Positions 1,821-50,176 of a stretch of 64,000 nucleotides of DNA are shown here, in pieces. A program made the translations under genes and the position numbers. The notes beneath the pieces were generated by a model. It saw only the letters and a program-made list of their open reading frames with translations, was not told the origin of the DNA and searched no databases. How positions within the stretch are numbered: the first letter of the stretch is position 1; the number at the start of each line of letters is the position of its first letter. The stretch is from Octopus vulgaris (taxonomy: Eukaryota), in the NCBI GenBank assembly GCA_951406725.2, contig OX597824.1, positions 63,054,001 through 63,118,000 on the forward strand, given 5' to 3'.

Positions 1821-5896
<4,076 letters not shown>

Positions 5897-6215: not shown

Positions 6216-9200
6216 TAGTTTTATTTTTATAGCGTGCTTTCACTTCACTACCGAGCGCAGCTCTGTGTGCCTTGGGTATGTGCTGTGATTTGTTGTGATG
6301 CTCTGATGGTTATTGTATGGAAAGTGTTCTGCGTAGGATGTGTGCAGTGCCTAGTAGTGCAATTTTCTGTATGTTATATGTGTTTGTAAGTCCTGGTGTT
6401 TTTGTTATGTATTTGTCTGAATATTTTTTTATCATGCCTAATGCACCTACTATGATAGGAATTGTTTCTGTTTTCAGATTCCACATTCTAGTTACCTCTA
6501 TTTCCAGGTCTTTGTATTTTGAGAGTTTCTCCATTTCTTTTAGAGACACGTTGTCATCAGCCGGTATTGATACATCAATTAGAAAGCATTTTTTTCTTCA
6601 TGATCTCTGACAACTATATCTGGTCTGTTGGCCTTAATTTCTCTATCTGTGTGTATCGGCATATCCCAGAGTATGGTTGCTTTCTCGTTTTCTGTGACCT
6701 TTTCTGGTGTGTGCCTATACCATCTTTTTTCTGTTGTTATTCCATAAAGTTGGCATAGCTTCCAATGTATGTAGGTTCCAACTCTGTCATGTCTGTGAAT
6801 ATATTCCTTCTTAGCCAGGACTGGGCAGCTAGAGATAATATGATTTATTGTTTCTTGTCCATCTCCACATATTCTGCAGTTACTTGTTATATTTATTTTC
6901 ATTACATGTTTTTGGTAATTTCTGGTGGGGAGGCTTTGGTCTTGTGCTGCAATTAAAAATCCCTCTATTTCTGCTTTGAGTCCTGAGCTTCTCAACAATT
7001 GCTGGGATTTTTCTTTGTCTATTTCTTTTGCGTTTAGTTTAGTCCAGTATTTACCATGAAGGGGATTTTCTTGCCATCGTTTTATCATGGTTCGTTGCTG
7101 TTCTATTTTTAGTTTGGATTTCATTTGTTTTATAGCTTTTGTTGTTTCTTCTTCTTCTTCTTCTTCTTCTTCATGTTTATTAGGTGGTATGATTTCTTGT
7201 TTGTATTTGTCAGCTTCCTTAAATACTGAGAACAGTTTTTTGTTTTGCTCGTGTTTTGCTGCTATCTGGATCAGTTTTCCTTCCTTCTGAAGTAGATATT
7301 TTTGCATTCCAATGGTGGTTATTTTATAGTAGTTTTCCTGTTGTATAAGGCCTCTACCACCTTCTATACGTTGTATATATAGTCTTTCTATGTCAGATTT
7401 TGGGTGATGCATCCTAGATCCTGTCATTAATTTTCTTGTTTTCCTATCTATTTTGGTCAGGTCATTTCGTGTCCAGTTAAGGATATTGTAGCTGTAACTT
7501 ATAACTGGGACAGCTAAAGTGTTGATACCTATTATCTTGTTTTTAGCATTGAGCTCTGTTTTTAGTATTGATCTAACTCGTCTATAATATTCTTTTTTAT
7601 TTTCTCTTTCATTTGTGTGTGTTGTGTCTTATCTAGTTCATGGATTCCTAAGTATTTGTAAGTTTGGTTTTGGTCTAATTCTTTTATTTCATTGGTTTTA
7701 TCTAGTGTGATGTTGTTACTCTTAACTAGTTTTCCTCTTTTCATGGTTACTTTGGCGCATTTTTCTAATCCAAATTCCTATCTATTTCTTTGGTAAATCC
7801 ATGAACTGTCTTTAATAGTGTTTCCAGCTGTTTGTCATTTGCAGCGTATAGTTTTAGGTCATCCATATATAAAAGGTGGCTGATCGTTTTGCCGTAACAT
7901 TTATATCCGCATCCAGTTCTATTTAGCATATCAGATAGAGGTGACAGTGCCAAGCAGAAAAGGAGTGGAGAGAGCGTGTCTCCCTGGAATATTCCTCTTC
8001 TAATGGGGATGTCTTTGGATTTCATGAGTCCCTCTTTTGTTTGGAGGTGTAGGACTGTTTGCCATTTATTCATAGAGTGCTCTAAGAATTTTATGATTGT
8101 TGGTGCTACTTTGTTAATGGCTAGTGTTTCGAGGATCCATGTGTGGGGGATGCTATCAAACGCCTTTTTGTAGTCAATCCAGGCCATACTGAGGCCTTTC
8201 TTCTTTCTGTGGCTGTCTTCAGTTATTGCTTTATTAATCATTAGTTGATCTTTACAGCCATATGAGCCTTTGCGGCATCCTTTCTGCTCTTCTGGGAACA
8301 GTTTGTCTTCGTCCAGGTGCTTGTTTAGCCTTTGTGATATCACTGCAGTAAATGCCTTGAACATAGTAGGGAGGCAGGTTATTGGTCTGTAGTTTTCTGG
8401 TTTTTCTGTTTCATTTGATTTGGGAATTAAGATGGTTTTCCCCTTCGTGAGCCATTCAGGCATTGTCTCTGGTTCTGCTAGTACGTTGTTAAAGTTTTCA
8501 GCTAGCTTTTTGTGCATTCCTGTTAGATATTTCAACCAGAAGTTGGGGATCTTGTCATGCCCAGGTGCCTTCCAGTTGCTTAGTCTTTGCAGTGCCTGGG
8601 TGACCTCTTCAGTTGTTACGGGGGTCCAAAGTTGTTCAGATGCCGAGTTTGTTATTTTGATACTCCTTTTTTTTGGTGGTTCGTTCGCCGACCATATTTC
8701 TCTCCAGAATTCTTCCAATTCTTCTGCCTTTGGTGCTGCAGTGACTTCTATTTTACTTTTGCCCAGTTCTTGGTAGAACTTTTTGGGGTTGGAGTTGAAC
8801 TTTTTGTTTTCTTCAAAGAAGCGTTGGCGTTTCTTGTACCGGCGGATCCTTTGTGCTTTGGCAAGGATATCTTGCTTCAGCTTTTCTTTTATTTCAGGCA
8901 AATCTTTCTCTGTGATGTTATATTTGCGGAGTATTTTTGTTCTCTTTTTGTTGCTCAGTAGCGTTGATTGTTTGCTGATTTCATTAAGAATCGAGAGGTC
9001 TTTTCTAATTTGTTTTTATTTTGCTTTGAATGTTATTTATCCACAGGGTTTGTTTGGGTGGTGGTACTCCTGTTTGGGCGGGTTTGGGTGAGTATCCAGC
9101 TTCTTTTGGTGGTCCATTTTGAGCTCTGTGGTTTTCAGTTCTTTGATTATTTTATTTTTTATATTATCATAATCATTAGGCTCCCCTTCGTTGTTTACAC

Positions 9201-9569
9201 CGTGTTTGTTGGGAATGTTGCGTTTGTCTTCGTGTTTTACAGTTTCAGTGTTTATATTATTGGGCATTGTTGTGTGGCTTCTATCTACATTTTCCTGGTG
9301 TATGTTTTCTTTTAGGTGTTCTATTTCTATTTCTGATATTTTATTTTGTGTTGAAAATGTATCTTCGTACGTTAGCTAATTTATTAGGGTTCATTGCTGT
9401 ATCCAAGTCTATATCTCTATTATTTTCCTTCCATATTTTATATGTATGTGTTGTTGTATTTTCATTTTTTGGGTAGAGTACTGCTGTGTAGTATGCGTAT
9501 AAGATAGAAATGTATTCCTCACGTGTCCATTTACGTCTTTTGGGTTTTATTTGCGGGGCATGATGTACA
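6213..9569 (-). mobile_element. R4/Dong-clade non-LTR retrotransposon, element 2 (distinct family, probably 5'-truncated)
   Basis: Same domain order as element 1 but divergent sequence. Short 3' UTR, (TAA)n on both sides. Confidence 0.9.
6310..9569 (-). pseudogene. RT-RLE polyprotein of element 2 (ORFs 9341-9569, 9037-9267, 7765-8901, 7562-7744, 6579-7427, 6310-6549)
   Basis: RRKWTREEY..NKLANVRR; NWKAPGHD, NYRPITCL, WIDYKKAFDS, GIFQGDTLSP, YMDDLKLY; CRIC-x7-H-x4-C, RHD, RPDIV, KLSKYKDL. Multiple frameshifts. Confidence 0.92.
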
Positions 9570-9672
9570 TTATTATTATTATTATTATCATTATTATTAT
9601 TATTATTATTATCATTATTATTATTATTATTATCATTATTATTATTATTATTATCATTATTATTATTATTAT
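9570..9672. repeat. (TAT)n microsatellite with periodic CAT interruptions
   Basis: Directly visible. Confidence 0.95.
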
Positions 9673-10067
9673 TAATGCATCGAGCTGGCAGCATCGTTAG
9701 CACGCCGGGCGAAATGCGTAGCCGTATTTCGTCTGCCGTTACGTTCTGAGTTCAAATTCAGCCGGGGTTGACTTTGCCTTTCATCCTTTCCGTGTCGATA
9801 AATTAAGTTACGCACTGGGGTCGATGTAATCGACTTAATCCGTTTGTCTGTCCTTGATTGTCTCCTCTGTATTTGGCCCCTTGTGGGTAGTAAAGAAATA
9901 GGTATTCCTCCGTTGGTGCGTTCTGAATTAAAATTTCGCCGAGGTCGATTTTACCTTTCATCCTTTCGGGTTCGATAAAATAAGTACCAGTTAAACACTG
10001 GTGGCGATGTAATCGACTCATCCCCTCCCCCAAATATGCTGGCAAAATTTAAAACCATTATTATTAT
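9673..10067 (+). mobile_element. tRNA-derived SINE family B, dimeric body
   Basis: A-box-like tggcagcatcgtt, B-box-like gagttcaaatt. Body (ctgag/aatt..tttcatcctttc..gtcgataaa) occurs twice. Many copies in window. Confidence 0.8.
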
Positions 10068-10961: not shown

Positions 10962-11132
10962 GGCGCAGGAATGGCTGTGTGGTAAGTAGCTTGCTTACCA
11001 ACCACATGGTTCCGGGTTCAGTCCCACTGCGTGGCATCTTGGGCAAGTGGCTTCTGCTATAGCCCCGGACCAACCAATGCCTTGTGAGTGGATTTGGTAG
11101 ACGGAAACTGAAAGAGGCCTGTCGTATATATG

Positions 11133-11166
<34 letters not shown>

Positions 11167-11388
11167 CATATATGTTTGTGTGTCTGTGTTTGTCCTCCTA
11201 GCATTGCTTGACAACCGATGCTGGTGTGTTTATGTCCACGTTACTTAGCGGTTCGGCAAAAGAGACCGATAGAATAAGTACTGGGCTTACAAAAGAATAA
11301 GTCCCAGGGTCGAGTTGCTCGAATAAAGGCAGTGTTCCAGCATGGCCGCAGTCAAATGACTGAAACAAGTAAAAGAGTAAAAAGAGTA
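10961..11388 (+). mobile_element. tRNA-derived SINE family A with internal (TA)n(TG)n
   Basis: A box tggctgtgtgg, B box ggttcagtccc, tail gtaaaagagtaaaaagag. Several homologous copies in the window. Confidence 0.85.
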
Positions 11389-14479: not shown

Positions 14480-15350
14480 AATGTCAACCATTTGTTATTC
14501 ATGGACGACCTCAACCTTTATGGTAAAGACGAAGCCGAAGTCAGTTCCATCGTTGAAACGGTGTATACTTTCAGTACTGATATCAGATTGGAGATCGGGT
14601 AGAGAAAGTGTGGTGTGTTAGTCTTGAAGAAAGGCAAAATCAAATGTATAGACAGGCTAACGATAACTTTGGTGGAGGTTATGAAGCAGATAGAAGAGAC
14701 GGGCTATAAGTATTGTGGAATTTGGAGATGGATAAATGGACGGAGAAAGACATGGAAGAAAAAAATTAAGGTGGAGTACATGCGCAGACTGAGACTGATC
14801 CCTATGTCGAAATTAAACGGACGGAATAAGATTGAAGGTACACTAGCCCAGAAGGAATATAAGAAACGCCACGACAATATAGCAAGACTTGACCATTGGA
14901 TACTTTGCAACAAGTATAGATTTGACAGAGTAGAAAATTGGTACGACTATAAACCCGAAGGCATAATCAAAAATGATAATGCAAGTATCCTGTGGGATTT
15001 TATGATTCAGTGCAACCATGAGATAAAGAATAAGAAGCCAGATATAGTCTTAATTGAGAAAGAAAATAAACTATGCTGGAACATAGATATAGCATGCCCA
15101 GCTGACAACAATATATGCGATAAGGAAGAAAGAAAAGTCGATAGATATGACAGGTTAGCTTGGGAGGTTTTGCTGTTGTGGTCGATAAAAAAGTGATAGT
15201 AGTACCGATAATTGTCGGAGCCTGGGAACAGGGAGTAAAAATATTGAGAAGTACGTGGAACAAATAGGGGCTACAATAAGTGTGGAGCATTTGCAGAAAA
15301 CAGTACTGTTTGGAACCGCTCGAATACTCCGGAAAGTACTCGAAAAATAA
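14480..15350 (+). pseudogene. Decayed, internally deleted R4/Dong-type RT-RLE fragment (element 3)
   Basis: HLLFMDDLNLYG, YKYCG, KRHDNIAR, ILWDF, KPDIV..IDIACP, ends LQKTVLFGTARILRKVLEK. Jumps from the RT thumb region (RNKIEG) straight to the post-knuckle region (LAQKEY). Confidence 0.85.
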
Positions 15351-15477: not shown

Positions 15478-16279
15478 TCTATATATATAAAACTGTAGTT
15501 GTGTGAGTGTCTGTCCCCTTCGATTTAGATTCCTAACTACTCCCACATTTTGCGGTGCAGTTTAACCAAATTCGGGTATCTTATAGTCGTGATTCATATC
15601 AAGCCCGTCTGGGTATTAGCACGCGTCTACGATGAGTCTACGATTTTAAAAATAATTTAACATAATTTTTTTATTCCACTTTAATGCATATTTTTTCGTG
15701 TGTCGATGGCGGCGGAGTTGGCGTCCACGCTCACACCTGCACCTGTTTGCTTCTCTCCCTTCTTCCCTCCCTCGTGAAGCTGTGGGGAAGGGAGTGTAAG
15801 GAAATCAACGTCGTAATGCGTTGTCAAGGAGACCAGCGTTCTTTTAGAACAACGACTTCATGGCTTGAAGTCGCCAAAACAGAAATCGCTAAAAAAGCTG
15901 AAACAGATCCACAAAAACGGCAATTACCGCCACACAGGGCAGGTTTCCTGTGCAAACAATTTGCACAACCGAATGTTTTAGTTGTTGCACAAATCTTTAT
16001 ATATAAAAGTAAGGTTGTGTGTATGTCTCCTACGATTTAGATTCCTAACTACTCCCACATTTTGCGGTGCAGTGTAACCAAAACCGGGTATCTTATAGTC
16101 GTGATTCATATCGAGCTCTTCTGGGTATTAGCGCGCGTCTACAATGAGTCTACGATTTAAAAAAAAAATTACCATCATTTTTTATTCCATTTTTAATGCA
16201 TTTTTTGCTATAACTCACTAAAAATGCTTATATAGTTATTTCCCTTACAAACCCGAGCAACGCCGGGCGATAGTGCTAG
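15478..16279 (+). mobile_element. Non-autonomous Helitron with duplicated 5' segment (5' ends at 15478 and 15994)
   Basis: A|TC starts, 3' hairpin cccgagcaacgccggg then CTAG|T at 16276-16280. ~200 bp of the 5' segment is repeated. Confidence 0.8.
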
Positions 16280-23392: not shown

Positions 23393-25301
23393 CATTGTAT
23401 GCAGTTTTTCGATGCTATGATCAATAAGGACGTACTTGTTTACATGTATTTCCCTCTCGCGCTCTCTCTCACACACACACATGCATACATGCTCAGACCT
23501 GAAAACGTATGTGTGTATGTATTACCCAACGAGTATTCGAAATATAATCGTTGCAGTGAAAATATGGAAGTACTGAAGAAACTAATTTCATAATAACATT
23601 TTTGTCAGTGATAATTATTCATACAATTGATCAGGTTATACATTTCTGTAAAGTTGCCATGGTTGGCAAAGTTTAGGTTTCTGTTCTTGAATTTAAAATA
23701 AATGGAATTGGCAAAACTTGTAAAACTGAACAACTTTATAGAAACTGAGACACCATGGCTGTCAGAGCAAGGTTGATGGTGATTGCGTACGAAAGCGTAT
23801 AAATAGTGCATGGAAGAGACCGTTCAGGAACACTCAATAAATTATTATTTGTGATAGCAGTAACGACCGCTAAGTACATTCATATTAATTATCCACACTG
23901 CCAAGCGATAGATGCCAATGATATGTAGCAGGTAATTTTACAACACATCACACATAACCCTCGAGCAAACGCTTTTTTGCCCACTCTAACAGATATGATA
24001 TTAATTTCATTTAAAGTTTAACTATCTGAAGAATCCTAAATTAATATTCAATGATATTTCATTTTCATAATCTTATTTACAGATGCGCACTTTATCTTTC
24101 CGCTAAGTTTAGGCATGCACAGTTGTGTTATATCTTCATTGCCAAATTTATATATAATGTTAAAATGATCAAATCTGATAGGTTGTATTACGAAAGTAGC
24201 GATTCTATTTAGTAGCCGATTACTCGATTCACCTAAAGCGCTATTTTACATATTAGAAATCACGGTTGAAACTATTCTAATTTCGTTTGATTTATTGATG
24301 TAATTATATAACAGCAGAATTCACCATTCACTCTCTTCTGAACACAATAGAATTTGAATGTACGTAGTCTCACAGACGATATAATGTAAATTTGGTAGTT
24401 TGCCGGTTTTAAACTATACTCTTATCCCATTAATAAATATTGCCTTTTCCTTGGGCAGTATGTTTTACATTACTTGCTTCAGGATAATCGACTTACTGAT
24501 TAGATTTACTGAAATTTACTGATTACTAGTTGACAACAGTCATAATTACTATGATTAAAGCATTTAATAAAGCTACTTAGTTGTGTAAAGCAACAATTGA
24601 AAGAATACTAGACAAACAAACGAGGTAGAATTTCCGTATCTTGTCAGTGGTACTATGTCTAAAATTCTAAAACGATGACCAAAATATTACACAGTCTACA
24701 TCCCTCTCAGCCTAGCTCTTAATTGCTGCCACTAAATAACATATTTCAAATCGATAAACTTCGATACAATATAAAATTTCTGAAGTTATATGTTAGGTTG
24801 TTCTGCAGATTTATATTCCCATACAGTAGCATGAATATTTATCACAGACTTTCTAATCAAAAGATTACTAGCTAATGAGCTCTGCATTGGTTCTTTTTTA
24901 TCATTTACTTATTTCAGTCATTAGGATGCGGCCATGCTTGAGCACCGCCTTGTAGCATATTTAGTCGAATGAATACTCCCCAGTATATATTCCTTTTTAA
25001 GCCCGATACTTATTCTAACGGTCACTTTTGCCGAACCAGTAAGTTACGCCGAAGTAAACACACTCTCACCGGTTGTCAAGCAATGGTGGGGGAAAACACA
25101 GCCAAAAAGAGAAACACACTCATGCACACGCGCGCGCATATATATATATATATACATCTCATATATATCGTATACAACGGACTTCTTTCAGTTTCCACTC
25201 ACAAGGCTTTGGTTGGTCAAGTCTACAGTAGAAGGCACCTGCCACAGGTGTCACGCAGTTGGATGGAATCCGGAGTGACGTGGTTGGGAAGCAAGCTTCT
25301 T

Positions 25302-27640
25302 TATTTCATTACATTTGCCATAAAGGCAGTACATAGAGTAAAGTAGCTTTTGACGAGGACATTAATGAAATGAATGATAATGGGAGATGATAAGGATGGG
25401 AGTAGACAAAAAGTGCCCGCCGACTTCTGCTTCTTTAAAACATTGTTCTTTAAAACCAAACACAAAACGAGGTATTAAACCTCTTACAACTTTTACAACT
25501 TTTCAATTTTTGGACTTAACAGTCCATTACAAACAACAACATAGTTCAATAATTACATATAATATAAATACAATACATAAAGCCCCTCCTCCTAGACCTG
25601 GCTTACACTTCCCTTAGGAATGCGCCAGCTCTAGGTCGGGGCCCCTCAAGTCGTATCACATAAAAAATACATTATCACTATTCCCTTCCTCCTCTTTCCA
25701 GACCTCCAGTCAAATATCTAGCCGCCTGCAGAGCAGACCACGTTGACAGCCGGGGAGTTCAGAAAGAAAGCGAAGTGCCTATTATCAAATGTTTGTGTCA
25801 CACAGTTCCACAATTTATGACTCATCCTCAAAATAACTTGTGCCCGTATCCTCTGCCATCCTCCACGCCTTCTCCAAAACCGAATCGAGTTCCGTGTCAG
25901 CATTGCCCGGGTACAAGCGATATCCCTCATTGAGCTCCTTCAGCCCAAACGTCACGTCGAACGTCATGGCCTCCACAGCTATCTGCGGAGGCCATTCGGG
26001 GTCCTGTGTGAAGGCTAAAGGTGCTCCCTTATGGTGCTTTTCTATCACCTTTTCAATATCTCCGCCTCTATGGAAGAAGATTAATACATCGTCTTTCCCT
26101 GGGGGCGGGATATCCAATTCCTTCATTGGCGGCACAGTTCCCGCCAGCGGTGTTTCTTCTCCTGCCGGTGGCACAACCCCAACCGACGTAGTTCCGGGAC
26201 ATTCCGTTACTATGTCACCGACTGCCGGCAATATCCCGTTTCTCTTCCTCTTTTTTTTCTTTTCAACTGAGGGAGGGTGCGTCTCCTCCGTGGCCGGAAG
26301 ATTCGCCTTCCCCTCCTCATCCCTAGGATCCTTCGGTGAGCACCCATTGTTGCTCACCTTCTTCCTCTTTCGGCCCCAGTTTGAGGAGTCCTCCGCTTCC
26401 TCGGCCGTCTTCATTCCCTCTTCTACAGGGGCCTCACTTGACTGCTCCGGGACCTTATTTTGTTCCCAGGGACAGTTTTTCTTTATATGACCGGACTCCA
26501 AGCACCGATGACACCTGGGGGCGACCCTCAAGTATCACCGGGTACCTGCACCCGGCCATTTTCAAAAAATCTGGAAAAACCAGATTGGCTGATTGGGTCC
26601 AAAGGGTCAACATTGCTTTTGACTCAACCCAAACAGCCGCAGGAAGAACTTTCACATTAAGAAGCTTGGTCCCGCTGCTACCCAGACCCCGGCGGATAGT
26701 CTCCTCTATCCACTCGGGTTTTATCCCGGGTGGCAGCCCGCAGATCCAAGCTTTCGTCAACCTCTTCCCATGATACGTGGGAAGAAATAAAATTTCCTCA
26801 CCTTCCAAGGGTTCACTAGCAAATTTGCGAGCCTCTTGAGGGGTATCAAAAAGCAACCACACCGTTGCATATCTGACACCCCTGGAAATGAATTTAATTG
26901 TTGGCAAATACTCTGCCAACTCCTTTTCAATTGCCGTTTTTTCGAATAGGGCGATGGTGTCGAGTGACTTGGAGTAGGTTCTCAACGCCACTGTCCTATC
27001 TTCACGGTCTTTTAACCACTTTTTAGGCGGTATAATCTCCCACTCCAAGGCAGTGGCTTCATTCTTCCTTGCCATGTGTAAAAAGTTCAAACAAAGTTCA
27101 CAATAGATTTAAAAATGAAGAAAGATATAAAAAAAAGAAAGAAGACACAACAGAAGGGAAGAAAAAAATAAAATAACAGTGCAATAAAGTTTTTGTTCCG
27201 AACCAAATGATAGACACGAAGAAGAGTTCAAATGATAGCAAAGAAAGCAATTTTCAGCCGAAAGTACTCCTGGCCAATAATCCACAGAGAATAAAATTTT
27301 CAATAATTTTCTTTTTTTCTTCGGCCGAAAGGTACTCCAGGCCTCTGTATAATCCACAGGTAAAAAATAATTTCTCACAATTACGTGAGAAAACACATAT
27401 CTCCACTGCAAGGCAGATAAAAACTCTGAATCCAGTAAGGACTCCTTGCTAGTACAAAAAATAAAACCTACAAGCAACAAATCCTACTGGACTCAAGAAG
27501 CAAAAAGTCTTACCTTACAGTAGAGCGTCTTTTAATTCACCAGCTGCACACCAGCGTGGTGACTTCAGTTCAATTTTCGCCAGCTGCAAATCAGCGTCGC
27601 GACTTCAACAGCGAGTGAAGAACAACTAACGACCGGAACC
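25302..27640 (-). mobile_element. Non-autonomous ORF1(Gag)-only non-LTR retroelement with 15-bp TSD
   Basis: TSD ggaagcaagcttctt at 25287-25301 and 27641-27655. ~565-nt 5' UTR, one ORF1-like gene, ~500-nt 3' region ending in AATAAA at the junction. No RT. Confidence 0.85.
25815..27075 (-). pseudogene. LINE ORF1/Gag-like protein: RRM-like region, CCHC knuckle, disordered basic tail. One frameshift at the G5 run 26517-26521
   Basis: ORF 26455-27090 (MARKNE..YPVILEGRP) joins ORF 25815-26531 (RCHRCLESGHIKKNC). This is the L1/Tx1-type ORF1 layout. NLS-like GRKRKK and KKKKRKR. Confidence 0.8.
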
Positions 27641-27814
27641 GGAAGCAAGCTTCTTACCACACTGCCGTGCTTGCATCTATAACTTCGTATAAAGATAACA
27701 AAAACCGTGCGTAGAAATTTGAGAGCAGAAGACTACAAAACTTCCTGTGCATATTTTGAACAAAGTGTTTCGATTCTCAGGTAGGGAACGTTACACTTGA
27801 CATTGGTTTCACTT

Positions 27815-28048
27815 CTTATTTCTTTATTGCACACAAGGGGCTAAACATAGAGGTGACAAACAAGGACAGACAAACGGATTAAGTCGATTGCATCGACCCC
27901 AGTGCGTTACTGGTACTTAATTTATCGACCACGAAATATGAAAGGCAAAGTCGACTTCGGCAGAATTTGAACTAAGAACGTAAGGACGGACGAAATACCG
28001 TTAAGCATTTCTCCCGGCGTGCTAACGTTTCTAACAGCTCACCGCCTT
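27815..28048 (-). mobile_element. SINE family B copy
   Basis: Near-colinear with the head-containing monomer at 61130-61359. Confidence 0.8.
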
Positions 28049-28297
28049 TAATTTATCTTAACGGTAAATTGTATACAGTCAGTTTATATCGGTTTTCTTT
28101 GTACGAAAAATAATTTTCTATTTAATAACATCAATATGATATTTCCCTTCATTCTCTGCTAGCGTTTTTGAAATTTTCCTTCATTTTCTGCTGGAAATTT
28201 AAACGCTACGACATGTATAATTTTCGTGGAAGTTTTGTGTTGGTAGTCAACTAGTGCTAATTCCTATTTCCATTCTTACGCTCCCTTTCTCTTTCAG

Positions 28298-28410
28298 AAT
28301 ATCATTCGGCTTCGTCTACGATAGAACAATATGGCAGAATCGGGACTCCACCACATGTCACACTGATTATAAATAATACAGTGACGGTTGAAGTCCCACA
28401 AGTGACCTAA
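28298..28410 (+). other. Candidate terminal exon of an unidentified host gene
   Basis: Long polypyrimidine tract + ttcag acceptor, then a stop-free frame YHSASSTIEQYGRIGTPPHVTLIINNTVTVEVPQVT*. No homology recognised. Confidence 0.2.
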
Positions 28411-29401
28411 TATTTGCAATTGCTTTTACATGAACCGTATTTTCTGTCAGCCGCCTATTGCTGTTCATCATTGTCGCAAATGAGCATGTGTGTTACTCTA
28501 TCGACACATCTTATGTGTGTGTACGTGTATCGGCAGCATTACCTGTGCACATTCTAACGTTGTCTGCCAGATGATGGAATGCAAATTATATTACGCAAGG
28601 ATACTGACACATGAAGGTACACGCACACACACACACACACTTACATGCACAATCACTCACACTCACTCTCACATAAGTAGATGTTTCAACGGACATACAC
28701 AAAGCATAGGGGTTCGATTCATATATTTATTTATTACACCATGATATCCTGTGTAGGTAAATGAACCGTGGATTAGTACAATGACTTAACCCGTTATAAT
28801 GGATACTGTCGATTAACTGATAAAGAGGTATCGAGACGAATACAATAAAAGCCAGAACAGCGTAGATGCGGTTCGGCATAAAGAAACTATTTATGGCCGT
28901 TAAGTATTTGTAATAGAGCGCACATACCACATATATACAGCAGCGTGTGTGTGTGTGAGTATGTGAGTGTGTGTGTGTGTGTGTGTGTCATGGGAAATAG
29001 ATAGAGAGACAGATAGATAGAGAGATAGAAAGATAGAGAGATAGATAGATAGATAAATAGATAGATAGATAGATAGATATATAGACAGGTAGATAGACAG
29101 GTAGATAGACACAAGCAGAGAGACACACACACACAAATAAACATACAGACAGGTGGATAGAAAGATAATATCTAGGTAACAATCTTAATTTGTCAAGAAT
29201 GCTTTCAAAGCTTCTGAATCAGTTGTCAGTCATTTTTAAAAAGCATTCTTACAATCAAATCCGACACAACTTACCTTCAAAGTCCATGAATCAATGTATA
29301 TTTACTGAGACACTGAAAAACTTAGACAACGAATACGTGCAGGCTGTTCCGTTGATGGGATCAAACGGAAGAGTCTTCGTCGTTACCAACGTAGTGAGAG
29401 G

Positions 29402-39587: not shown

Positions 39588-40880
39588 CGAGGGGCGTTCA
39601 ATAAGTAATGCCCCTGACCCACTTCCCATAGCAGTAGAGCAACGAAACTTGGCACAGTTATTAGTCTTTTTCTACATAGGAACCACCCAGAGTTACGCAT
39701 TTCTCCCATTGCTTGATGCAGCTCTGGAGACCGTTTTTATAGACGACCCCAGCTTGGTCCTCCAACCTGAACGTGACTTCAGAAATCAAGGCTGCATCAT
39801 CTGGGAAACGCTTTCCTTTTAAAAACAACTTCATGACTGGGAAGAGGTGAAAATCAGAGGGTGCAAGGTCAGGAAAGTAGGGGGATGGGGGAGGAGTTCA
39901 TAGCCATACGCCTGTGCTTCTGATTTGGCGACAAGCGAGTTGTGGACCGGAGCGTTGTCCTGCAGGAGGAGGATGCCTTTGCTGATCTTGCCCCGCCTCT
40001 TGATTTTGATAGCTTCTCTTAATTTCCTCAAAAGTGAAGCATAATAGGCTCCTGCAATTGTGGTACCCTTTGCCAGGAAATCTGTCATCACTACTCCGTC
40101 CTGGTCCCAGAAGACTGTGAGCATGACCTTGCCAGCGGAGGGCTGCACCCTTGCCTTCTTTGGAGGGGGTGAGTCACGGTGCTTCCACTGCATTGACTGG
40201 GCTTTGGTCTCTGGATCATCGTGATGGACCCAGGTTTCATCCTGTGTAATCAGTCTTTTGAAAAATTTTGACTCCTCTTCTCGGCAAATCTCCAAATTCA
40301 TCCTCGAGCACTCGACGCGTTCTTGCTTCTGGAAAGGTGTGAGCAACCTGGGAATCCATCTGGCAGACACCTCCTTTTGCATATGCAAATGGTCATGAAT
40401 GATAGTTTCCACAGACCCGGTACTAATCTTGATCTCATGGGCTATTTGGCGAATAATTATGCGTCGATCTTCCAAAATGGCAGCCTCAACGTGACGGACA
40501 GATGCCTCATCAATGGCAGAAGGGGTGACCAGATCTGGGAGCTGTTTCCACAGAGTTCCGACCATGTTTGAATTCACGATGCCAGCGTTTTACAAGGTCA
40601 TATGATGAGGCATCATCACCATAAGTTACTTTCATTTCATCAAAAGTCTCCCGTGGTGTCCGTCCTTTCAAATACAAAAACCGGATCACTGCTCGACACT
40701 CAACAGGCTCCATTTCACACTTGACTCGGTTCAAACACCTGTAAATCAGAAACCACAATTAATTTACAGCTGTAATTTGCCACTTACTCTATAGAGATAT
40801 AAATGATTGCACATGCAGCATTTCAGCTAGATCAAACAACTGCAAGTGGGTCAGAGGCATTATTTATTGAACGTCCCTCG
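39588..40880 (-). mobile_element. Full-length mariner (DD34D-type) transposon, 1293 bp
   Basis: TA TSDs. ~37-bp TIRs cgaggggcgttcaataagtaatgcccctgacccactt / aagtgggtcagaggcattatttattgaacgtccctcg. Confidence 0.95.
39661..40713 (-). pseudogene. Mariner transposase, frameshifted
   Basis: MEPVECRAVIRFL.. HTH, WIPRLL, QDETWV, QDNAPVH, (Y)xPDLAPSDFHLF, ends SYVEKD*. Split between ORFs 40510-40758 and 39831-40577 and a further frame. Confidence 0.92.
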
Positions 40881-48870: not shown

Positions 48871-50176
48871 GGAAAATATGGCAGTCAGAACTTTCCTCTT
48901 ACAACGAAACAATATCCCACAATGCATTTGCAGTATCAGTGCTTATCCCAATTTCGGATACTTGTTTGGTGTGTAGAGGAATTCTACTCTAGGGATATCA
49001 AAACCCGCAAAATCCTATCAACAACTGAGAACTTCCAGAGAAACAGTGACGTTGACAGGCCCTACCTAAAAAAAGATGAAAGTGGTAGAGGCCTGATATC
49101 AGTGCAGACGGCTTTCGAACGCCGTATCGTATCACTCAAGCAGTACCTGCTAAACAACAGCAGCAAAAATAAATATATAAATGCTGTGCTGAAATGTGAA
49201 GTGTGCAACATTGTATGACTTAGTAGTGAGCTTTTAAAGAAACACTCTCTTCCTGATGATATTCTATATAGCCCCAAAACAGCTGGGCTCCCTTACCTCG
49301 GAGGAGACCTGGATGGAAAGCACTCAGCATAGAAAAAAAGAGTATGCATGGGTATGAATTAAGACGAAGTGCAGCCTCACTTGGCCACAAGACCACTACA
49401 TTACATCACACTTTGAAGGCTATGCGTTTGCAATCCAGGAACAGGAGATTTCCACAAAGTACCTGGTGAACAAGAGAGACAGTGACGCTCTTGCAATCCC
49501 AAGGGCCAACCGCATGTGTAGGATATGTCATGTTTCTGTGGAAGACACCACGCATGTGATTAGCAGCTGTCCTAGAATGTCATCACAGTACTACCTCCCA
49601 ATGCGGCACGATGTTGTTGCTAAAACAATTTACAATGTTATCTGTAAAAAAGACTGTCCTGAAATAAACTTAGAAAATACTTCTGCTGTGGAATATATCC
49701 ATAAAGACCAACTCAAGAAATACTGGTGGAATATTTCTATCAAAATTTCTGTCAAATGTAAACATTACAGTCCAGATATTGTTGTTTGGGATAGAGAGGC
49801 AAAAGTATGTACCGTCATAGAGGTCAGCTGTCCCGCAGATACAAATATGTCTTCGAAAAATCAAAGGAAAACAGGATATCTACAACTGCTTTGAAACCTC
49901 CAGCTTCTATATACGGAATATGAATTCATATTCATACCAATAATAATTGGAGCACTAGGTTTTGTTAGTAAATGCTTAAAAGAAAATCTGGATAAATTTG
50001 AATTTTCAGAAAAAGAAATTGACCGGAAAATTCGTACATTACAAGTGCAATTTGTGAGTGGAACAGTAAAAATATGCAATTTGTCTGTCTTAACTACATC
50101 CCAAAGACATATTTTCGTATCTTTGTTGGAAATCGGCTCCCTCAGTGGAAGATTCATAATAATTAAAAAGTAGAAG
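48871..50176 (+). mobile_element. 5'-truncated, decayed R4-clade retrotransposon (element 4) with 13-bp TSD
   Basis: DIKTRKIL..SDVDRPYL..GRGLI, FAIQEQEI, CRIC-x7-H-x4-C, MRHD, SPDIVV..IEVSCP, IPIIIGALG. atgcatgcataca at 48858-70 and 50177-89. Confidence 0.85.

Follow-up and report, generated by a model that had tools for sequence, protein, structure and literature searches.

An ORF1-only LINE-like element in the head of an Octopus vulgaris SINE: a candidate non-autonomous retrotransposon with an RRM–CCHC protein

Non-autonomous LINEs of the bipartite class that have kept ORF1 include HAL1, which is derived from L1, HeT-A (Jockey) and Ag-Sponge (CR1) (PMC5786205). They have a 5′ UTR and ORF1, lack ORF2 and end in a non-coding 3′ part, and the reverse transcriptase (RT) and endonuclease are borrowed; their ORF1p has been proposed to multimerise with the proteins of the partner (PMC5786205). 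HAL1 carries ORF1 only, is flanked by target-site duplications (TSDs), uses an L1-type target site (PMC5753468, PMC5322556) and has a poly(A) tail (PMC5322556). The ORF1 of mammalian L1 is of type II, with a coiled coil, one RRM and a CTD (Transposase_22) (PMC5203782). HeT-A of Drosophila also possesses only a Gag-like ORF1 and needs the RT of a partner (PMC5786205). Type I LINE ORF1p is defined by a CCHC knuckle that is immediately preceded by one or more RRMs (PMC4120745; also PMC5203782), and ORF1 proteins of this type are found in many LINE clades (PMC4120745).

The insert described here is located in a 64-kb window, which is the whole stretch of Octopus vulgaris DNA that was analysed (Table 1). 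It is laid out like the members of the bipartite class: it comprises the 5′ portion of a LINE, with ORF1, it ends in a non-coding 3′ region without ORF2, and its RT and endonuclease would have to be borrowed. It differs from them in its mollusc host, in its two-RRM ORF1 of type I and in having a single knuckle. The reading that we favour, with no more than moderate confidence, is that the element is a propagating non-autonomous ORF1-only LINE, probably of the L1/Tx1 type, that an APE-type partner copies in trans; should it prove to be a family, it may function like HAL1, HeT-A and Ag-Sponge. The weights given to the competing readings are a matter of judgement, not of computation. The element is not HAL1 proper, because its ORF1 is assigned to type I and it has no poly(A) tail. 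The comparison with HAL1 made in a preliminary description of this DNA is apt for a TPRT-type, ORF1-only insertion, and the functional likeness is fair, but it does not extend to the ORF1 type or to the tail. Unlike HeT-A, which forms telomeric head-to-tail arrays, the octopus copy is single, interstitial, TSD-flanked and placed inside a SINE.

Table 1. Features of the element and its insertion site (positions in the window)
Feature	Position	Strand	Details
Whole insert, ORF1-only LINE-like element	25302..27640	-	2339 bp
TSD copy, element 5′ end	27641..27655	-	empty site in other SINE copies
TSD copy, element 3′ end	25287..25301	-	exact repeat
Host SINE head, 5′ part including TSD	27641..27681	-	blastn, alignment
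Remainder of host SINE and tail region	24901..25301	-	71% to 10984-11376
5′ UTR	27076..27640	-	565 nt, repeat pairs and hairpin
ORF1, assigned to type I (predicted RRM-RRM-CCHC and low-complexity tail)	25815..27075	-	419 residues, one frame break
Predicted RRM-fold domain 1, residues about 15-102	26770..27033	-	La RRM Z 8.9, rmsd 2.5, 81 aligned
Predicted RRM-fold domain 2, residues about 103-184	26524..26769	-	4n0t_A Z 8.5, rmsd 2.7, 73 aligned
C5 homopolymer, reading-frame change	26517..26521	-	tblastn, homologue alignment
Single CX2CX4HX4C zinc knuckle	26472..26513	-	sub-threshold Pfam and pattern
3′ non-coding region	25302..25814	-	513 nt, no ORF2 remnant detected
AATAAA across 3′ junction	25300..25305	-	AATA from insert, AA from TSD

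The insert is bounded on each side by one exact 15-bp repeat, GGAAGCAAGCTTCTT, which cannot be extended in either direction and has exact matches at only these two places on both strands of the window. The repeat alone is little proof of an insertion, because comparable exact 15-mer repeats, 0.5–8 kb apart, occur elsewhere in the window. Using blastn within the window, the left and right flanks of the element can both be aligned to one SINE, the head of which is split by the insertion. Four other copies of this SINE from the window were aligned; the 15-mer is single and unbroken in three of them, and the fourth has a deletion at that site. Since the empty site is kept in three other SINE copies, the 15-bp duplication is a true TSD, and the insert size and perfect TSD given in the preliminary description hold, with exact limits. 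The location in a SINE head is absent from that description. The SINE head is presumably tRNA-derived; ARAGORN finds no tRNA genes in the window, and a search of Rfam over 24000–29000 yields two weak matches, both outside the element. The insertion point lies directly after the GGT/AAG motif of the SINE. The cleaved strand reads TTCTT/AC, a pyrimidine run followed by a purine, which resembles the L1 site, quoted as TT/AAAA (PMC5322556). The site reads AAGTAG in three other SINE copies versus AAGAAG at the element’s own SINE, a difference that fits a general purine-run preference equally well. To the right of the element, at a distance of about 180 bp, lies another SINE-like repeat (27817–28054, +), which is abundant and matches many places in the window.

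ORF1 is read from an ATG at 27075 to a stop at 25815, with X at the break, and has a GC content of 51%; an earlier estimate of about 420 codons, broken only in a homopolymer, agrees with this. The sole frame switch maps to the C5 run. In tblastn comparisons, P0002, P0014, P0015 and P0033 all change frame at this run, and the closest homologue, which is intact there, reads in frame through the position. Either a mutation arose here later, or the break is a homopolymer error of the long reads. The zinc knuckle, reported previously from its pattern, matches Pfam zf-CCHC with E = 0.01, under the curated cut-off; it is the only Pfam match in ORF1, where neither RRM nor Transposase_22 is detected. 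The tail past the knuckle is acidic/basic and of low complexity. For the C-terminal 101 aa, the predicted structure has a pLDDT of 40 (model without an alignment), with no match in Pfam or among the stored homologues.

The AlphaFold model of the N-terminal region of ORF1, built from the homologue alignment, has a mean pLDDT of 90. VIA-align places an RRM on each of its two domains: La on the first and, on residues 103–183 of the second, 4n0t_A, a chain from the U6 snRNP core; RRM1 of U2AF65 matches the second domain with Z 8.0. The top ranks of a Foldseek search are filled by tandem-RRM proteins, with a best E of 1.1e-4 and a low TM of 0.3. According to these models, the N-terminal half of ORF1 comprises two RRM folds, so that the RRM likeness noted earlier is recovered by structure (AlphaFold, Foldseek, VIA-align), not by Pfam. 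As the predicted RRM folds stand directly before the CCHC knuckle, octopus ORF1 is assigned on this modelling to the type I LINE ORF1 proteins, following the definition given in PMC4120745 and PMC5203782.

A word-based protein search found two relatives among 4111 candidates, both of them Octopus sinensis gene models. The nearest, P0002 (LOC115225585), has 64% identity over 283 columns; its first knuckle cysteine is gone, and it stops at 281 aa. P0003, a stretch of 47 aa (81%), lies within a gene model for an integrase. From their sequences, both look like decayed dispersed copies. An exhaustive search with the first 184 residues of ORF1 yielded 40 proteins at E ≤ 0.001. The knuckle pattern occurs in 8 of the 41 stored proteins, each with at most one intact CCHC. 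Conservation is 73/101 and 64/82 in the RRMs and lower, 30/74, in the tail. Both octopus ORF1s have 15–16 residues ahead of the first conserved proline, and six distant homologues have 46–143; three other homologues in this comparison are N-terminal fragments. The N-terminus may have been shortened in the octopus ORF1 lineage (27027–27075, −).

The 5′ UTR, rightly described as long, is T-rich (37% GC), and its first letters are GGTTCCGGT. It contains a 32-nt repeat pair (27536–27607, 84%) and a second, degenerate pair at about 27253–27367. A hairpin at 27420–27500 (−), a stretch picked by eye, has a folding z of −7.7 and is matched by 0/200 shuffles. This hairpin overlaps a possible 65-nt intron, with a donor-like site at 27513 and an acceptor-like site at 27449, which is retained in the copy. 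The TTCCGGT core at the 5′ end of the element is also present in the lizard L1 5′ consensus of PMC5381506, a lead suggesting that this end may be native. The first 8 nt of the element (27633–27640, −) are found in two SINE copies as well, at 11008 and 45426; in the copy at 11008, the 8-mer sits 9 nt downstream of the duplicated 15-mer. These 8 nt may be target-derived or may simply be an L1-like 5′ motif. A stop-free frame of 124 codons without an in-frame ATG is present in the 5′ UTR (27109–27483, −), in the same frame as ORF1, with one stop between the two. A frame as long occurs in 0.8% of shuffles, this segment being one of four tested, and Pfam gives no significant match to it.

The region beyond ORF1 bears most directly on what the element is. 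Its longest open frame has 57 codons, a length equalled by 40% of 1000 shuffles; in equal slices of the two RT LINEs of the window, 104–171 codons are open in 15/15. The three sense frames of the region, with stops read as X, have no APE or RT match in Pfam or PDB, in accordance with the earlier statement that RT is missing; neither RT nor endonuclease was found in these searches. The 513 nt past ORF1 are non-coding, in a copy whose ORF1 and TSD look young. A frame at 25649–25825, which overlaps the ORF1 stop and by eye faintly resembles the start of an APE domain, was discarded, as searches of PDB and Pfam returned nothing relevant. At native L1-type ends, the 3′ junction reads AATAAA, and premature polyadenylation would leave its signal 10–30 nt upstream of the tail. 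In this one copy, the 3′ junction is AATA/AAGAAG, without an A-run or a poly(A) tail. The AATAAA of the preliminary description is present, but its final AA comes from the TSD and no A-tail follows. It is also the only AATAAA/ATTAAA of the 3′ region. The last 263 nt of the element have a GC content of 32%, and a search with a simple pattern reveals no acceptor-like site 3′ of ORF1. Shuffled sequences fold at least as well as the last 179 nt (z +1.44), and the last 44 nt have a z of −1.71; a stringent 3′ stem–loop is not supported by folding.

The reading as an ORF1-only family is preferred mainly because, had an otherwise young copy suffered a random deletion, open ORF2 ends would usually be expected to remain, and because the junction reads AATAAA. 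In this scheme, a master copy would be transcribed from an internal promoter within the 5′ UTR, and its ORF1p would bind and chaperone its own RNA and co-assemble with the ORF1p/ORF2p that an autonomous relative provides. The APE endonuclease, borrowed in this way, would nick the bottom strand at TTCTT/AC, and the 3′ end of the RNA, at the AATAAA terminus, would pair with the exposed T’s. Reverse transcription would then proceed to the 5′ end, and a second cut staggered by 15 nt would give rise to the TSD.

The L1/Tx1 type is suggested by the single knuckle, the TSD length, the target site and how abundant such elements are: L1-Tx1 elements amount to 56 Mb in 80 families in O. vulgaris, versus 0.5 Mb of I elements (PMC13282606). 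Autonomous partners are plausible in this species, since 13 of the 80 L1-Tx1 families have been recently active (PMC13282606). RRM/CCHC variants of ORF1, such as that of the octopus element, fit the Tx1 clade (Tx1L, Keno, Tx1-Mar) (PMC5203782); unlike these, the element has no ORF2/RT, on which clade assignment rests. Atlas leads for P0002 point to ZCCHC3-like clusters (0.89–0.90) and, when knuckle clusters are skipped, weakly to Jockey/I-type PRE_C2HC clusters (0.84). The clade is not fixed, because these leads diverge and type I ORF1 spans many clades.

Several Tx1 families insert into other transposons (PMC4494074), and the octopus copy sits in a SINE head. It is conceivable, though quite unlikely, that a Tx1-derived ORF1-only family and its autonomous partner insert specifically into the head of this abundant octopus SINE; a protein-coding but non-autonomous element would then parasitise LINE enzymes and find in the SINE a safe harbour of high copy number. 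A single insertion in a SINE head is no demonstration of targeting, because the SINE core makes up 1.5% of the window and SINEs account for 11.7% of O. vulgaris (PMC13282606).

Against a family, only a single copy is seen: blastn finds neither a second copy nor an autonomous partner in the 64-kb window, and the 3′ end has no match to an autonomous LINE there. The tail is missing, as internal priming predicts, and the 513 non-coding nt could be an inter-ORF spacer rather than a 3′ UTR, spacers of 257–1,032 bp being common in the L1 elements of fish, frog and lizard (PMC5381506). Gene models with ORF1 fused to RT or ORF2 were found neither among proteins of 1092–3115 aa nor among the 8000 best candidates of 46–1091 aa, both weak negatives. 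Of 304 pattern matches in prokaryotic genome contigs, none was confirmed. In the literature searched, ORF1-only LINEs are not reported from cephalopods; Repbase, Dfam or the Zenodo library of PMC13282606 may already hold the element, and Table 1 of that paper contains one ‘other retrotransposon’ insertion of 2391 bp. If the element represents a family, ORF1-only LINEs would have arisen independently once more, besides HAL1, HeT-A and Ag-Sponge, this time in a mollusc and with a type I ORF1, and the family would permit a direct test of selection keeping ORF1 for the packaging of its own RNA. RT-based annotation would miss such an element.

The preliminary description allowed for either a family or one copy that had lost ORF2 after insertion. 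This choice is incomplete, as a one-off 3′-truncated tailless insertion also fits. Such a copy of an autonomous LINE could have formed if the LINE’s own ORF2p primed internally, at an A-rich spot within a long inter-ORF spacer, or if a prematurely ended RNA was used, so that copying took in only the 5′ UTR, ORF1 and a portion of the spacer. We regard this as possible, though on the unlikely side; the element would then be an ordinary by-product of LINE activity. A one-off truncation predicts the lack of an A-tail, the complete 5′ end, the perfect TSD and the lack of an ORF2 remnant. In human, 90 3′-truncated tailless L1 copies with TSDs are set against 708 full-length ones, with internal priming as the favoured explanation (PMC5322556); these resemble the octopus copy in being 5′-complete, TSD-flanked and without an A-tail, but they are one-off events, not families, and the octopus junction reads AATAAA. 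The spacers of PMC5381506 are long and T-rich, and the end of the octopus element has the low GC content given above. However, for the truncation the spacer must reach 513 nt or more, priming must fall within it, and the junction must read AATAAA by chance. For a prematurely polyadenylated RNA, the signal would be expected ahead of the tail, whereas the sole candidate is the junction itself.

Loss of ORF2 from an autonomous copy, either through an internal deletion once it was inserted or through splicing of the RNA beforehand, is unlikely. A deletion would leave the TSD and both ends, spliced L1 insertions are known as SpIREs (PMC5860796), and the window holds a single copy. Both breakpoints would, however, have to fall outside recognisable ORF2, as the open frames do not exceed chance and APE/RT matches are lacking; the copy looks young, with an exact TSD and one break in 419 codons, yet retains no trace of ORF2. 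The post-insertion loss proposed earlier is weakened by the lack of an ORF2 remnant on either side of the supposed junction, and splicing by the lack of an acceptor-like site (simple pattern) 3′ of ORF1.

It is very improbable that the insert is a processed retrocopy, mobilised in trans, of a host gene which, like L1TD1, had been domesticated from a LINE ORF1: the layout of UTR, ORF, UTR and AATAAA is mRNA-like, P0002 is annotated as a gene and the RRMs are better conserved than the tail, but P0002 and P0003 look decayed and the 5′ UTR carries tandem repeats and starts in an L1-like way. An assembly artefact in which the middle of a full-length element was dropped is scarcely credible, for although the homopolymer frame break may hint at long-read error, the window is free of N, the TSD is clean, no cut ORF2 ends are seen and the element contains no repeat that would favour collapse.

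Other repeats are also present in the window. Two broken LINEs with RT, at 2123–5803 (−) and 6579–9751 (−), adjoin (ATT)n arrays. They have a C-terminal motif like a restriction-like endonuclease, and we take them to be probably Dong/R4; being of another type, they are not likely to be partners of the ORF1-only element. The stretches at 14603–15196 (+) and 49358–49894 (+) look by eye like the C-terminal part of the same type of RT LINE and have no Pfam match. A fragment of a Mariner-type transposase lies at 39831–40589 (−) (Pfam Transposase_1, E 9e-25), and at 15521–16158 (+) a stretch is locally duplicated, the period being 512 bp.
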